From NCBI GenBank assembly GCA_038065195.1, contig JBBTRL010000046.1, forward strand, positions 1 to 10,762: DNA of 10,762 bases, read 5' to 3'. Origin of the DNA: Patescibacteria group bacterium (GTDB taxonomy: Bacteria; Patescibacteriota; Minisyncoccia; GWA2-38-13b). The notes under the pieces were generated by a model. It was not told the origin of the DNA. It saw only the letters and a program-made list of their open reading frames with translations, and ran no database searches. Both the position numbers and the translations under genes were made by a program. Below, piece after piece: positions 6,239-10,762 of the stretch (position 1 is the first letter of the stretch; each line of letters starts with the position of its first letter).

Positions 6239-6251
6239 TATTATGTAAAGT

Positions 6252-6325
6252 GGGTATGTAGCTCAGCTGGTTAGAGCACGGCCCTTATAAGGCCGGGGTC
6301 CTTGGTTCAAATCCAAGCATACCCA
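6252..6325 (+). tRNA. tRNA-Ile with anticodon UAU (AUA-decoding)
   Basis: A 74-nt cloverleaf. The acceptor stem GGGTATG pairs with CATACCC, the D-arm is GCTC-AGCTGGTTA-GAGC (Ile-like body), and the anticodon stem/loop is CGGCC-CTTATAA-GGCCG with TAT at positions 34-36. The T-arm is CTTGG-TTCAAAT-CCAAG with discriminator A. CCA is not encoded. Confidence 0.85.
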
Positions 6326-6350
6326 TAGATGCAATCCCAACGCGTTCACT

Positions 6351-6509: not shown

Positions 6510-6541
6510 CAAATCGATTCCACCACCAAATCGATTCCACC
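6510..6541. repeat. Two tandem copies of a 15-nt direct repeat (CAAATCGATTCCACC) separated by 2 nt
   Basis: Copy 1 at 6510-6524 and copy 2 at 6527-6541 are exact. A short palindrome CCTATCAATAGG lies at 6494-6505. The repeat sits in the leader region of the minus-strand tRNA-Leu. Confidence 0.5.
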
Positions 6542-6568
6542 TAATAAAATTAAACCTTATTTTAAATT

Positions 6569-6603
6569 AAAAATCAACCGGCCAAATCGGCAAGTTGATT
6601 TTT
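6569..6603. terminator. Terminator hairpin downstream of the last pilin-like gene on the minus strand
   Basis: The stem AAAAATCAAC / GTTGATTTTT (10 bp) has an inner GCC..GGC sub-stem. On the minus strand it is followed by a T-run, 20 nt after the stop of the 6623-6955 gene. Confidence 0.45.
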
Positions 6604-6622
6604 AATATTCAATGCTATCATT

Positions 6623-6955
6623 TTATAATCCGGAGACATCAATACCCAAAAACGAAGGAAGAACCTGCATCACAATAATCCACGCCAAAAATACAATCGC
6701 GACACCGGCAACCGTGTATATTATTGTAGACAAAGCCTTTTTTCTCGTCTCGTCATTTCCACCAGAAGTCATCCATTGAATGCCGGCAACAATTAAAAAC
6801 ACAACTGCCAATATAACGGCAAAGGCAAAAAACCAATTCATAGCCGTCTTAAAAAGAGCATATATCTCATCCAAATCGCCCACATTAGATTCGGTTGGCG
6901 GTTCAATCGGCTGAGCGTAAACTGTATTTATTATATTTGATAAAAAATTCAACAT
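6623..6955 (-). CDS. VirB2/TrbC-like T4SS-pilin-family small membrane protein (paralog 6, 110 aa)
   Basis: The core is NWFFAFAVILAVVFLIVAGIQWMTSGGNDETRKKALSTIIYTVAGVAIVFLAWIIV: two hydrophobic helices around a GGND..KK loop. The N-terminus is short and uncharged (MLNFLSNIINTVYAQP). The start is ATG, and an in-frame stop lies 9 nt upstream. Confidence 0.65.
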   Translation of the reverse strand: MLNFLSNIINTVYAQPIEPPTESNVGDLDEIYALFKTAMNWFFAFAVILAVVFLIVAGIQWMTSGGNDETRKKALSTIIYTVAGVAIVFLAWIIVMQVLPSFLGIDVSGL

Positions 6956-7107: not shown

Positions 7108-7521
7108 TTATAAACTTATTTCATTTAATATATCACAAAAACTCGTACCGAACAAACCCAAAATCAAATCAAGCAAACCGGAGGCAAGACCGCCCGATTC
7201 TATATCTAATTCTCCTATCCCCAAAAATTTAGGTATAATCTGCTCAACTATTATCCTGGAAGCAAAAATAACCATTACACCGACTGCGGTAAAATATAAT
7301 TTATTTAATGCCGTTTTTTTTGTATCAACATTACCTCCGGCAGTCATCATGCTAATTCCAATAGAAATTGTATAAATAATAGCTACCACTATGGAAAAAG
7401 CAAAAAACCAATTCAATATTTTCAAAAAAAGACAATAAAGAACACCTACGGTGGGAACCGCCCCAATCGCGCCTATTCCGCTTTGCGCCCAAGCAGATTT
7501 AATAAAAAAATTTAATATCAA
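7108..7521 (-). CDS. VirB2/TrbC-like T4SS-pilin-family small membrane protein (paralog 5, 137 aa)
   Basis: The core is LNWFFAFSIVVAIIYTISIGISMMTAGGNVDTKKTALNKLYFTAVGVMVIFASRIIV. It begins at a TTG at 7519-7521, because the only in-frame ATG lies deep inside and a stop lies 15 nt upstream. Its N-terminus (M)ILNFFIKSAWAQ parallels that of paralog 6. Confidence 0.6.
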   Translation of the reverse strand: MILNFFIKSAWAQSGIGAIGAVPTVGVLYCLFLKILNWFFAFSIVVAIIYTISIGISMMTAGGNVDTKKTALNKLYFTAVGVMVIFASRIIVEQIIPKFLGIGELDIESGGLASGLLDLILGLFGTSFCDILNEISL

Positions 7522-7554: not shown

Positions 7555-8037
7555 TTAAATACCTGCGCCCATACGTGAAAAAATATTTCCAAGCAAACTC
7601 GCCCACCATACCACCTCGCATTTTACAGCGTAAATCGGTAATATAATCGCCTCAAAACCTGCCGTAAATACGCCCAAAAACATCGCAATCATTATTAAAA
7701 TAGATGTGGAAAGCAAAACTATGACAATTCCCACGAAAATCCATGATAAATTCTTATGAACGGTTGAAAGCGTTTGCGGATCTCCGGAAGCAAATATATA
7801 ACGAAGTCCGTTTATAATTAATAATATTATCGCAATCACAAGCGCAAAACTAAAAAGCCATGTCATAAGACGCAAAAATATGCAATAAACTACTCCTGTC
7901 GTAGAATCTATTCCTGGGGTATTTTTCAGCAACTCATCAAGATCCAATTCTTCCGCCAGCGCAAAAGCATAAAAACTAAAAAATAGCGTAAAAAATATTA
8001 TAGTATACTTTATAAATACAATTCCCTTATAAAACAT
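7555..8037 (-). CDS. VirB2/TrbC-like T4SS-pilin-family membrane protein (paralog 4, 160 aa) with an extra C-terminal hydrophobic extension
   Basis: It has a Sec-type signal peptide (MFYKGIVFIKYTIIFFTLFFSFYAFALA|EE). The core is LMTWLFSFALVIAIILLIINGLRYIFASGDPQTLSTVHKNLSWIFVGIVIVLL, followed by about 45 additional hydrophobic residues. The start is ATG. Confidence 0.6.
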   Translation of the reverse strand: MFYKGIVFIKYTIIFFTLFFSFYAFALAEELDLDELLKNTPGIDSTTGVVYCIFLRLMTWLFSFALVIAIILLIINGLRYIFASGDPQTLSTVHKNLSWIFVGIVIVLLSTSILIMIAMFLGVFTAGFEAIILPIYAVKCEVVWWASLLGNIFSRMGAGI

Positions 8038-8048
8038 AATAAATTTTT

Positions 8049-8519
8049 TTACGATCCGCTAACTTCTAAAATACTCCTGATAAAAGCGATGATGCTTGAA
8101 GAATTGATTAAAGCCTCCTCCGGCACCTCCAAAATACTCCTAACAAAAGCGATAATACCGCGACCAATCAATAAGACCGCAACGCCGACTATCAGCCAAA
8201 TCAACGCTGTTTTCGCTTTTCCAATTTGCGCGTCACCACCGCCGGCTGCAAAAAATAAAACACCAATATAAATCGTTAAAATTATGGCAAGCACAATCGC
8301 TACGGAATAGAAATATCTGGCAACCCTTTGCAAAATAGCCACCACATCATCCAATGTTAAATCAATGCCCTTGACGCCTTGTTCAGAATCTAGATCGTCA
8401 GTAGAAGTGCTGGTAGTCGCCTGAATCGGCGCGGCAAAAAATATACTCGCCACGAACAAACCGATAAAAAACAAAGCGCCAAATCGTAAAATATTTTTAT
8501 GCAATATTTGTTTTTTCAT
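8049..8519 (-). CDS. VirB2/TrbC-like T4SS-pilin-family membrane protein (paralog 3, 156 aa), recent duplicate of paralog 2 with an internally duplicated C-terminus
   Basis: It has a signal peptide (MKKQILHKNILRFGALFFIGLFVASIFFAAPIQA|TT). The core is YFYSVAIVLAIILTIYIGVLFFAAGGGDAQIGKAKTALIWLIVGVAVLLIG. The C-terminus reads IIAFVRSILEV-PEEALINSSS-IIAFIRSILEV, arising from a 63-nt tandem duplication (8065-8093 and 8128-8156, 25/29 identical). Confidence 0.7.
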   Translation of the reverse strand: MKKQILHKNILRFGALFFIGLFVASIFFAAPIQATTSTSTDDLDSEQGVKGIDLTLDDVVAILQRVARYFYSVAIVLAIILTIYIGVLFFAAGGGDAQIGKAKTALIWLIVGVAVLLIGRGIIAFVRSILEVPEEALINSSSIIAFIRSILEVSGS

Positions 8520-8595
8520 TTTAATTTATTAATAAATACCTTAAATAACGAAGCTTATTTCGTAATTTAAAATAAATAATTAAATCTTCTTTTAT

Positions 8596-9000
8596 CTATT
8601 CCACGCTCAACATATCTTTTATAAGAGTTATAAACCCCTGACCAATCAATAGAACCGCAACGCCGATCATCAGCCAAATAAATGTTTTTCTCGCTTTTGC
8701 GACTTGTTGATCGTTGCCACCAGCCGTAAAAAATAAAATGGAAGTGTAGATTACCATAATTGGAATCAGCGCAATGGCTATGTAATAAAAATAGTCAGCA
8801 ACTCTTTCCACAATATCTATTATTTCATCCGTTTCTAACGGATTGGGATATTCAATTGTAGTGCTACTGGCAACGATGCCAGTAGTGGTCGCCAAAACAG
8901 GCGCGACGAAAAATACGCTCGTTGCAAAAAATAATATGAAAAGTGAAACACCCAATCGTAAAATAATTTTCAATGATTTTTTTAAATTTTTACTCCCCAT
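8596..9000 (-). CDS. VirB2/TrbC-like T4SS-pilin-family membrane protein (paralog 2, 134 aa)
   Basis: It has a signal peptide (MGSKNLKKSLKIILRLGVSLFILFFATSVFFVAPVLA|TT). The core is YFYYIAIALIPIMVIYTSILFFTAGGNDQQVAKARKTFIWLMIGVAVLLIG. It shares about 85% nucleotide identity with paralog 3 over the core, for example 8639-8700 against 8161-8222. Confidence 0.7.
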   Translation of the reverse strand: MGSKNLKKSLKIILRLGVSLFILFFATSVFFVAPVLATTTGIVASSTTIEYPNPLETDEIIDIVERVADYFYYIAIALIPIMVIYTSILFFTAGGNDQQVAKARKTFIWLMIGVAVLLIGQGFITLIKDMLSVE

Positions 9001-9050: not shown

Positions 9051-9464
9051 CTAACACTTGACCTTATACCATGGCCATGGAAATCCCGCCGGTTGATCGG
9101 CGCCGGAACCAGTCATCATTAATAAAATGGAATCTACAAGCAACCACGCTCCATAAATAATCAATGCGCCCATAACCACGCCGTATAAAATACTTTTCGC
9201 CCAAGCAAGTTGTTTCTCGCTGCCGCCTGAAGTGAAAAAAAGAATCCCGCTCGTAACTATAAGTAAAGCTGCCAACGGCGTAACTAAATCAATAATAATA
9301 AAATCAATTATTCCCTTTGACATAACAAAAAAATCGCATGTCGTGCAATCCGCCTCTCCTTCGCCACCACACGGAACCAAACCCGCCGCATTGGATGCCA
9401 ATGGCAAAAACACAAACAATACTGCCATAAACAATAATATAAATTGATATATTGATACTCTCAA
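9051..9464 (-). CDS. VirB2/TrbC-like T4SS-pilin-family membrane protein with an N-terminal Cys motif (paralog 1, 137 aa)
   Basis: After a Sec-like signal peptide (MRVSIYQFILLFMAVLFVFLPLASNA|AG) comes GLVPCGGEGEADCTTCDFF, the Cys-containing motif I associate with the CPR T4SS-pilin family. The core is LIVTSGILFFTSGGSEKQLAWAKSILYGVVMGALIIYGAWLLV and the C-terminus ends in ...YKVKC. The start is a TTG at 9462-9464, 14 nt after the stop of the SBP gene. An alternative ATG at 9426-9428 would leave no signal peptide n-region. Confidence 0.65.
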   Translation of the reverse strand: MRVSIYQFILLFMAVLFVFLPLASNAAGLVPCGGEGEADCTTCDFFVMSKGIIDFIIIDLVTPLAALLIVTSGILFFTSGGSEKQLAWAKSILYGVVMGALIIYGAWLLVDSILLMMTGSGADQPAGFPWPWYKVKC

Positions 9465-9478
9465 GTTTTTAATTTTTA

Positions 9479-10762
9479 TTATTTCCTATATAACACATTT
9501 ATCTGGTTTGCCGATTTTTCTATTGTCTGCCTAATTGTGGATTGCCCAAAAACAATTGATTCTATCATATCGGCAAATATTTTTTCAATTGCAACATTGT
9601 CAATCTGATACCAAGACTTAGCTGTAAGCGATTGCAACGCAAAAACCCCCAAGTGCGCCTTATCTTTTTGCGAATTAACTAAATCCCTTCTGGCCGTCGG
9701 TCTTTTTGACGCCTCCAAATATTTCAACGCATTATCTTTTAAGGCCATAAACTGAATAAAATGCCATGCCCATCCGGGATTTTTAGAATTTACAAAAACG
9801 GTTGGCGCCCAATAACCGGCATAAGAAATATTATTAGCGCTGCCGACGATTTGCGGAATCGCCGCAACACCGAAATTAAGATATGGCGCTTTATTTTTAA
9901 TAGTATCAATGTGATGAGAATAATTTATCATCATCGCGGTCTTGCCTTGGTAGAACGCGTCTATGGAATAATCCATTTCAGAATTCCATGTATAAACTTC
10001 TTTCTGAGGATTGGCAAAGTCCGTATAAAACCTCAATGCCTCTTCGCCTGCCGCGAACGGCTGACCATCTAAGGAAACAAATTTATCAAATATGACTCTA
10101 TTGCTTTGCGGATCAGTCATTTGCGTACCGGTCTGCATCATTAGAAGTCCAAGAATATCCGTGGAACGATTTATGTTTTTTGCCATACCAATGGCCGCGC
10201 CAGCCCTGACGATATTTCCGAAATCGTCTTTCTTGGTTAAAATTTTTACATCTTTAACGAAATCATCCCATGTTAACGGCGGTTCCGCTATGCCACTACT
10301 CTGAAAAATATCTTTATTCCAATATAAAGCCAATGTGTCCACAAAAAGAGGCAAACCGTAAATCTGATCGCCGACTACCAAATCCCGAAACGCCACATCA
10401 ACAAACGAATCCTTGAAGTTTTGAATTGTCATCATTGTTGGAGATAATGGAACGATCTTGTCTTTGTGTTTCGGAAGCCATGTATTATTAATACTCCAAA
10501 TATCCGGTCCCTTGCCGGCGGCAAAAGCGCTGATTAAATCTTTTTCATAATCTTCAAATGCCTTTTTAACATAAGTAATGGTTACTAACGGATACAAACG
10601 CTGATATTCCTTTATGATATCGGTAAAATAATTACCATTATCGTAAACACTCCAAAATTCCAAATCAATTTTTTTTGTTGACTTGGGTTTCTTGATGCCG
10701 AATACAATAGCAAAGACAACGATCAAAACAACCACGAAAACTACTCCTAAAAATATTATCCG
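9479..10762 (-). CDS. Extracellular solute-binding protein (ABC-type, family 1 / MalE-like), membrane-anchored; 5' end runs off the window edge
   Basis: The ORF stays open to the window end. The in-frame upstream codons encode RIIFLGVVF ahead of the listed GTG. An N-terminal transmembrane anchor is followed by KKPKSTKKIDLEFWSVYD. GKGPDIW and aromatic-rich periplasmic-binding-protein signatures appear throughout. The stop is at 9479-9481. Confidence 0.7.
   Translation of the reverse strand, partial: RIIFLGVVFVVVLIVVFAIVFGIKKPKSTKKIDLEFWSVYDNGNYFTDIIKEYQRLYPLVTITYVKKAFEDYEKDLISAFAAGKGPDIWSINNTWLPKHKDKIVPLSPTMMTIQNFKDSFVDVAFRDLVVGDQIYGLPLFVDTLALYWNKDIFQSSGIAEPPLTWDDFVKDVKILTKKDDFGNIVRAGAAIGMAKNINRSTDILGLLMMQTGTQMTDPQSNRVIFDKFVSLDGQPFAAGEEALRFYTDFANPQKEVYTWNSEMDYSIDAFYQGKTAMMINYSHHIDTIKNKAPYLNFGVAAIPQIVGSANNISYAGYWAPTVFVNSKNPGWAWHFIQFMALKDNALKYLEASKRPTARRDLVNSQKDKAHLGVFALQSLTAKSWYQIDNVAIEKIFADMIESIVFGQSTIRQTIEKSANQINVLYRK

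Follow-up and report, generated by a model that had tools for sequence, protein, structure and literature searches.

A pilin-like gene array behind a solute-binding protein gene

The 10,762-nucleotide (nt) stretch of DNA analyzed here, which we call the window, belongs to an uncultured, Parcubacteria-type Patescibacteria bacterium from groundwater of the Hainich wells, an origin indicated by contig names. On its minus strand it carries six small open reading frames (ORFs) in a row, immediately behind a gene for a solute-binding protein (SBP). We numbered the slots of this array 1 to 6 from the SBP gene, so that they are occupied by g6, g5, g4, g3, g2, and g1, in that order, and we use W for the lineage of the window. 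Our main subjects are g4, whose protein ends in a tail containing the same 11-residue motif twice, and its neighbor g5. An earlier note on this DNA, in which g4 was "paralog 3" and g5 "paralog 2," had read the two genes as recent duplicates and the tail of g4 as the product of a 63-nt tandem duplication. We instead favor, with a probability of roughly 0.75, an evolutionary account that combines ancient paralogy, an inherited tail extension, and a lineage-specific second copy of the motif that is old and selected, with no ongoing slippage. The genes concerned are as follows.

9479-10735, minus strand: SBP gene, encoding a membrane-anchored, sugar-type protein of the ATP-binding cassette (ABC) kind with SBP_bac_8 and SBP_bac_1 matches; directly upstream of the array, with conserved synteny
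9051-9464, minus strand: g6, slot 1, pilin-like (PF18895, 15.6 bits, subthreshold; orthologs 72-78% identical)
8596-9000, minus strand: g5, slot 2, pilin-like, 134 amino acids (aa) (PF18895, 31.9 bits; clade sister to that of g4 in the tree)
8049-8519, minus strand: g4, slot 3, VirB2-like pilin precursor, 156 aa, 471 nt (PF18895, 29.5 bits)
7555-8037, minus strand: g3, slot 4, pilin-like (PF18895, 28.5 bits; orthologs present)
7108-7521, minus strand: g2, slot 5, pilin-like (PF18895, 20.6 bits, below cut-off; clade sister to that of g1 in the tree)
6623-6955, minus strand: g1, slot 6, the best pilin match of the array (PF18895, 49.7 bits; PF04956 TrbC, 27.3 bits against a cut-off of 27.9)

All six array genes matched PF18895, the T4SS_pilin family of type IV secretion system (T4SS) pilins, which has a gathering cut-off of 26.6 bits. 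This cut-off was passed by g1, g3, g4, and g5, while g2 and g6, which fell below it, join the family via their orthologs. Pairwise identity within the array ranged from 21 to 47% at the aa level, with g4 and g5 as the closest pair, so that the earlier description of these two genes as pilin-family paralogs, each the other's closest relative within the array, was borne out. The g5 protein lacks a C-terminal extension and ends in GQGFITLIKDMLSVE, and g6 carries a conserved CGGEGEADCTTC motif after its signal peptide and a C terminus of the form PWPW..C. The array region of the window is identical to a contig of the metagenome-assembled genome (MAG) GCA_964360735.1.

Age of the g4/g5 split

The neighboring genes had been described as about 85% identical. 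The two segments offered as an example of their likeness, 8161-8222 in g4 and 8639-8700 in g5, are indeed alike, with 51/62 positions identical, but they form the single most conserved segment of the pair, which corresponds to the second transmembrane helix (TM2). When aligned by codon, g4 and g5 shared 235/378 positions, or 62% nt identity, with 47% identity at the aa level. The best ungapped block spanned 131 nt at 71%, and the longest exact run common to both genes was 13 nt.

We found the same gene order (SBP, g6, g5, g4, g3, g2, g1) in six further lineages (L011, L033, L036, L037/L038, L041, and L042), which were recovered using the neighboring SBP and g4 homologs as handles. A profile scan of genome contigs with the g4 ortholog alignment yielded no relative, and the SBP query was used instead; the same profile added only one short Hainich contig when metagenome contigs were scanned. 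L011 is Parcubacteria bacterium GW2011_GWA2_38_13b, and its SBP is 84% identical to that of the window.

In a tree of all slot proteins, each slot was monophyletic, and g4 and g5 formed sister clades, as did g1 and g2. Over the conserved core, W g4 was 58 to 68% identical to its orthologs from other lineages versus 45% to g5 beside it, and the proportion of synonymous differences (pS) between g4 and g5 (0.55) lay within the range observed between g4 and its orthologs (0.52 to 0.63). Given that every slot is monophyletic across the seven lineages and that pS between g4 and g5 is as high as that between orthologs, the duplication predates all seven, and we conclude from these sequence comparisons that g4 and g5 are ancient paralogs, each of which has since been kept in its own slot.

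Within the TM2 tract of 8161-8222, pS between g4 and g5 fell to 0.22, compared to 0.61 in the rest of the core. We considered a recent g4/g5 conversion tract as the cause, but the same dip is seen between orthologs (0.33 to 0.46) and when g4 is compared with g5 within other genomes (0.24 to 0.52). The low pS of this tract therefore appears to be mostly a property of the segment itself.

A 33-nt segment present twice in g4

The tail of g4 can be divided into the following parts.

8124-8156, minus strand: repeat copy 1, residues 122-132, IIAFVRSILEV, which extends the second transmembrane helix as an amphipathic segment
8094-8123, minus strand: linker, residues 133-142, PEEALINSSS, unrepeated (14/34 matches at period 63; tail alignments)
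8061-8093, minus strand: repeat copy 2, residues 143-153, IIAFIRSILEV, within a predicted helix at 141-154
8049-8060, minus strand: last three codons (SGS) and TAA stop, with the start of g3 11 nt downstream

The segment containing copy 1 is found in all g4 orthologs, in the form II[AT][FL]V[RQE][SDN][IL]L[ET]x. We confirmed that 8065-8093 and 8128-8156 match at 25/29 positions with an offset of 63 and that the C-terminal extension repeats an 11-residue motif in frame. A repeat search gave the full extent of the match as 8062-8093 against 8125-8156 (32 nt, 84%, spacing 63), and by codon the two copies were identical at 27/33 nt and 10/11 aa. The 25/29 match was not reached in 300 codon shuffles (best, 23) or 300 mononucleotide shuffles (best, 21) of g4. 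Outside the 32- to 33-nt unit, however, the rest of the 63-nt period matched at only 14/34 positions, the 30-nt linker was unrelated to the sequence preceding copy 1, and Tandem Repeats Finder reported nothing in 8049-8160, even at a score of 30. The gene thus contains two copies of a 33-nt segment with 30 nt between them, and not a 63-nt tandem duplicate. Among the 179 pilin-like proteins that we gathered, a repeat of at least 8/10 tail residues occurred in this population only.

The six nucleotide differences between the copies comprise five synonymous changes and a single nonsynonymous one (Val/Ile), giving a pS of 0.70 over 7.2 synonymous sites and a proportion of nonsynonymous differences (pN) of 0.04 over 25.8 nonsynonymous sites. 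The probability of no more than one nonsynonymous change among six random hits is 0.0024, and the longest exact run common to the two copies is 11 nt. Since the synonymous sites are near saturation while the peptide has been preserved, the copying appears to be old, with both peptides under purifying selection.

Origin of the C-terminal extension

Below, the tails of the proteins in the g4 slot are written out for the seven lineages, with hyphens between their parts.

W: GRG-IIAFVRSILEV-PEEALIN-SSS-IIAFIRSILEV-SGS
L011: GRG-IITFVRDILET-GDEESALDAIN-LFVRILNEGKYF
L041: GRG-VITFVRDILET-GNKGDAFDIIN-PFV
L033: GRG-IITFVQNILET-GSEETMIN-FINKLV
L042: GRG-IITFVQNILET-GDKESMIN-FINWLA
L036 and L037: GRG-IITLVENxLTxAG, without an extension

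Five lineages (W, L011, L041, L033, and L042) have an extension with a common starting point, and only L036 and L037 lack it. Where present, it begins with a linker of acidic character, followed by an Ile-Asn that never varies and then by a short hydrophobic end, a pattern that can be written as ...ILE[TV]-[GP]x[EK]E..[AM][LI]..IN. The PEEALIN of the W linker resembles the GSEETMIN, GDKESMIN, GDEESALDAIN, and GNKGDAFDIIN of its orthologs, and in L011 the hydrophobic end itself echoes the first helix in degenerate form (F-V-R-x-[IL]-x-E). Because L011, L041, L033, and L042 all have the extension at this place, we infer that W inherited its own and that no private tandem duplication produced it.

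Only W has the second, nearly exact copy of the 11-residue helix end. Both W copies carry Ala, Ser, and Val where all orthologs have Thr, Asp/Asn, and Thr. Given that these residues are common to both W copies, W copy 1 was probably the template for copy 2, at a time when W had already separated from L041 and L011. In a tree built from the remaining five slots, W grouped with L041 and L011 (199/200) and L036 with L037 (200/200), and the g5 and g3 slots together gave a tree that paired L033 with L042 (200/200). The proposed event would have re-copied about 33 nt onto a preexisting degenerate second helix, by template switching or intragenic conversion, and would date from long ago, once W had diverged from its nearest sampled relatives.

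An alternative is that W acquired its extension independently, through a true 63-nt duplication of GVAVLLIGRG plus IIAFVRSILEV, after which the membrane part was reshaped into PEEALINSSS and came to resemble the other linkers by convergence. The spacing of exactly 63 nt, in frame, fits such an event, as do the W-specific residues common to both copies and the varying tail lengths among lineages, and the 14/34 matches in the unrepeated part are slightly above the ~30% expected for AT-rich DNA. This alternative would, however, need a single event to have left 82% identity beside 41% in adjacent parts, with no tandem array visible to Tandem Repeats Finder. Furthermore, the closest relatives, L041 and L011, have an extension at the same place, with the acidic start and invariant Ile-Asn of W. 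We therefore consider an independent origin unlikely.

Several points weigh against our favored account of ancient paralogy and inherited extension. We judged by eye, from 7 to 11 residues, that the short linkers are homologous, and the dating of copy 2 relies on only ~7 synonymous sites. Our trees are neighbor-joining trees of short proteins, and the g4 tree itself is poorly resolved. The three clades of lineages are unrooted, so that a single gain of the extension is indistinguishable from a single loss. Finally, there may have been a short, old g4/g5 conversion tract in TM2, as the within-genome pS of 0.22 is below the 0.33 to 0.46 of the orthologs.

Predicted structure of g4 and its tail

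The g4 protein has the hallmark of PF18895, that is, a signal-peptide-like N terminus and two long hydrophobic helices with a short loop between them. Hydropathy analysis placed hydrophobic stretches at residues 9-36, 62-97, and 99-133. In an AlphaFold2 model built from 73 sequences (mean predicted local distance difference test [pLDDT] score, 71), a signal-type helix at 8-28 ending in A-P-I-Q-A is followed by a disordered, variable Ser/Thr/Asp stretch at 29-55, a long helix at 56-91, a GGGD loop and then Lys residues, and a second long helix at 96-130 that ends in copy 1. The modeled tail breaks at Pro133 and continues as a short helix at 134-139 and a final helix at 141-154, which corresponds to copy 2. 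The repeated 11-mer is strongly amphipathic as well as hydrophobic (mean hydropathy, ~1.95; hydrophobic moment, ~1.8).

In VirB2, TrbC, and F-pilin, the hairpin forms the core in the membrane and in the filament, with both termini pointing outward. By analogy, Sec would export the g4 precursor, and the signal peptide would be cleaved behind IQA; the membrane and pilus hairpin would consist of the two long helices, with the Lys-containing loop inside; and the C-terminal tail would lie outside, showing its two amphipathic helix copies on the surface of the cell or pilus, where it could serve in subunit packing or in contact with a partner or host. We hold surface display of the tail as a tentative proposal, with a chance somewhat short of even. 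On the other side of the ledger, neither a Foldseek search of the model against the PDB nor a profile search of PDB sequences gave a significant match to solved pilins. The best Foldseek hit was a chain of a type III secretion system export apparatus (8axk_O; E value, 0.2) and the archaeal conjugation pilus 8dfu came up at an E value of 2.1, in a comparison where hairpins are poorly discriminated and the model has a pLDDT of 71. We also detected no VirB4, VirB6, or coupling-protein domain or other T4SS machinery within ~10 kb on either side. Given the lack of nearby T4SS genes and of a significant solved-pilin match, the pilus role and the outside position of the tail draw on family knowledge.

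Alternatively, maturation could remove the extension as a C-terminal propeptide; the mature pilin would then lack the second helix, whose role would be confined to targeting or processing. Pilins of the TrbC/VirB2 type are known to be trimmed at the C terminus, among them RP4 TrbC and, before its cyclization, Ti VirB2. This precedent favors a propeptide, as do the modeled helix break at Pro133, right behind copy 1, and the extension-free orthologs, which end a few residues past the first helix. Yet the ~10 kb on either side hold no TraF-like peptidase, purifying selection on the exact copy 2 peptide exceeds what a disposable spacer would need, and the other slots have tails of very different length and sequence. 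On balance, we regard removal of the tail as improbable.

Stability of the repeat and strain variation

We found the exact 156-aa g4 protein on 14 contigs from independent assemblies that differ in well and pipeline (European Nucleotide Archive [ENA] Hainich H43, H51, H52, and H41; Logan; NCBI MAG), and the g4 DNA was identical in the 10 of these compared at the nucleotide level. A second g4 allele was present on 4 more contigs, with 1 to 4 single-nucleotide polymorphisms (SNPs), one of them a Leu-to-Ser change in the linker, and the same length of 471 nt. In a collection of 15 billion proteins, the 90%-identity cluster contained just the proteins of these two alleles, both of 156 aa. Neither a one-copy nor a three-copy form of the repeat was seen in the 14 contigs compared (10 plus 4) or in this cluster.

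Strains differ by ~1% elsewhere in the array. Relative to L001, L004, and L005, g5 has a 12-nt in-frame indel and 13 SNPs, 5 or 6 of them nonsynonymous, within 8619-8882, and g1 has 10 SNPs, 8 of them synonymous, within 6632-6818; g3 has one SNP, and g6, g4, g2, and all spacers are identical. This clustered g5/g1 mosaic suggests allelic recombination or local diversifying pressure. We rejected conversion of g5 by g4 as the source of the g5 SNPs, since of the 13, the variant allele matches g4 at 5, the window allele does so at 4, and neither does at the remaining 4.

These data bear on the proposal of the earlier note that g4 and g5 arose by a recent tandem duplication, that a 63-nt slippage duplication then added 21 aa to g4, and that duplication, slippage, and conversion continue to diversify the array. 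The repeat and the 82% local tract on which it drew are real, and no two genes of the array are closer to each other than g4 and g5. Nevertheless, their overall identity and pS of 0.55 are not those of recent duplicates, and separate g4 and g5 orthologs exist in six other lineages. The supposed 63-nt unit is repeated over only 32 nt, beside a linker of ortholog type, and the pS of ~0.7 between the copies (differences at 5 of ~7 synonymous versus 1 of ~26 nonsynonymous sites), together with the uniform length in all contigs compared and in the protein cluster, speaks against ongoing slippage. The genes also make poor substrates for conversion, with exact runs of at most 13 nt between them and at most 11 nt between the copies, and the strain SNPs of g5 do not lean toward g4. 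We judge this proposal very unlikely. That the repeat is an assembly artifact or chance similarity, for which nothing but its short length speaks, can be set aside almost entirely, as 0/600 shuffles reached the observed match and the identical sequence came out of assemblies that were made independently and differ in well, run, and pipeline.

Genomic setting of the array

The SBP gene and g6 are separated by 14 nt, and g4 and g3 by 11 nt (8038-8048). In L011, g4 and g3 overlap by 20 nt (12941-12960), and the corresponding junction in L033 lies at 2844-2849. The short SBP-g6 distance and a g4/g3 junction that is at most 11 nt long or overlapping fit a single translationally coupled operon. Scans for promoters and terminators returned counts near shuffled expectation. 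Between a tRNA-Leu gene and the end of g1 are two further repeats, a perfect 15-nt direct repeat at 6510-6541 (CAAATCGATTCCACC, in two copies separated by 2 nt) and an inverted repeat of 25 nt at 6559-6613 (80% complementary, 5-nt loop), the latter of which may be the terminator of the array. ARAGORN also called a tRNA-Ile with anticodon TAT (UAU) at 6251-6326. Bacteria usually use a tRNA-Ile with a CAU anticodon modified by TilS, and UAU is an uncommon bacterial route to reading AUA.

Two further sequence features concern the pilin-like proteins. The g6 protein and its orthologs end in GFPWPWxK[IV]xC, and many distant family members end in ...P[LI]xC; g4 and g5 have no C-terminal Cys. These endings suggest that a C-terminal Cys is conserved, perhaps for a disulfide or another modification. 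In addition, Cys-rich inserts of 90 to 150 aa lie between the signal peptide and the pilin core in g5, g4, or g3 orthologs, in a slot that varies by lineage (L011, 11724-12455; L036, 7230-7979 and 8593-9288; L033, 2194-2844; L041, 5190-5984; L042, 771-1604). One of them is annotated as DUF4215 (PF13948).

The pairing with an SBP extends beyond the syntenic lineages. In a search with the SBP only, a pilin-like ORF stood directly behind the SBP homolog, on the same strand, in 15/22 loci from distant Patescibacteria. These SBP-linked loci (L011-L024 and L032), from Parcubacteria, Yanofskybacteria, Portnoybacteria, Torokbacteria, and others, hold 1 to 7 PF18895 pilin-like genes each. All ten SBP-following ORFs that we checked passed the PF18895 cut-off. 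We found no ABC permease or ATPase near the SBP gene in the contig of the window.

Comparison with known pilin systems

The array fits the class of patescibacterial pilin arrays described in a 2025 survey (PMC12102498), with a small lineage-specific elaboration of one tail. That survey reported VirB2-like pilins in 1,948 patescibacterial assemblies, with 441 arrays of 2 to 11 pilin genes and a within-array identity averaging 25% and reaching at most 54%. Among its examples are the pilin array of "Ca. Southlakia epibionticum" ML1, which is essential, and, in Nanosynbacter lyticus TM7x, the "Sec secreted array" (PMC12102498). Our array likewise belongs to a patescibacterium and consists of small Sec-type precursors with a two-helix hydrophobic hairpin, encoded by divergent tandem paralogs on one strand, and both its six genes and their 21 to 47% identity fall inside the published range. 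It differs in its surroundings. An association with virB4 or other T4SS machinery is usual, although not universal, among the surveyed assemblies (1135/1948) (PMC12102498), whereas we found neither within ~10 kb of this array, which instead follows an SBP gene, a pairing that the survey does not mention. It also differs in that one slot, g4, has a helix-linker-helix tail.

In the survey, pilin arrays are likened to the variable virB2 repertoires found in Bartonella and Anaplasma (PMC12102498). The tandem virB2 paralogs of those genera, which are associated with antigenic or host-range variation, similarly place several divergent VirB2 genes side by side. In contrast to such a variable repertoire, the six slots of our array have one-to-one orthologs in seven lineages, copy number and order are frozen across them, strain variation is concentrated in g5 and g1, and there is no sign of conversion between neighbors. 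Slot-by-slot orthology that is frozen across lineages argues for distinct, nonredundant subunits over a shuffling repertoire.

The conjugative TrbC/VirB2 pilins of diderm T4SSs (PF04956; F TraA, RP4 TrbC, and Ti VirB2) share the topology of the array proteins, with a signal peptide and two hydrophobic helices joined by a short basic loop. The matches of g1 (27.3 bits) and g3 (17.5 bits) to PF04956 were below cut-off, and g4 and g5 gave none; distant relatives behind the same SBP gene passed it. Unlike in those systems, no cyclization or processing enzymes or secretion machinery were found near the array. The best NCBIfam neighbor for 5/6 genes, over the whole 80-residue model, was NF045849 (Mbov_0395 family), a pilin-like family of integrative and conjugative elements (ICEs) in Mollicutes, although the scores of 17 to 31 bits are far under its 40-bit cut-off and there is no ICE context here. 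A monoderm (MPF-FATA) ancestry has been proposed for the patescibacterial T4SS, and NF045849 as the best neighbor fits that proposal.

Implications for patescibacterial pilin arrays

We advise against citing the repeat in g4 as a sign of active genome dynamics, whether by duplication or by slippage. Rather, the locus offers a clean example of a frozen six-subunit patescibacterial pilin array, as opposed to the churning repertoire that the antigenic-variation analogy implies. Under our favored account, the tail of the g4 slot evolves through the addition and renewed copying of a short amphipathic helix, with selection acting strongly on the peptide. Selection of this kind argues that the tail is a functional, and probably exposed, part of the subunit.

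A more speculative idea, which we consider doubtful, is that the SBP and the array form a module, a heteromeric surface filament or conduit made of fixed, non-interchangeable pilin-like subunits that works with the SBP and independently of the virB4-linked T4SS. If this were true, the module might, for example, serve the capture of nutrients from a host, and the doubled amphipathic tail of g4 would represent the way in which one lineage adapted an exposed contact surface. The constant tie between array and SBP could guide experiments on what these proteins, which are abundant and in one case essential but uncharacterized, do in epibiotic bacteria.

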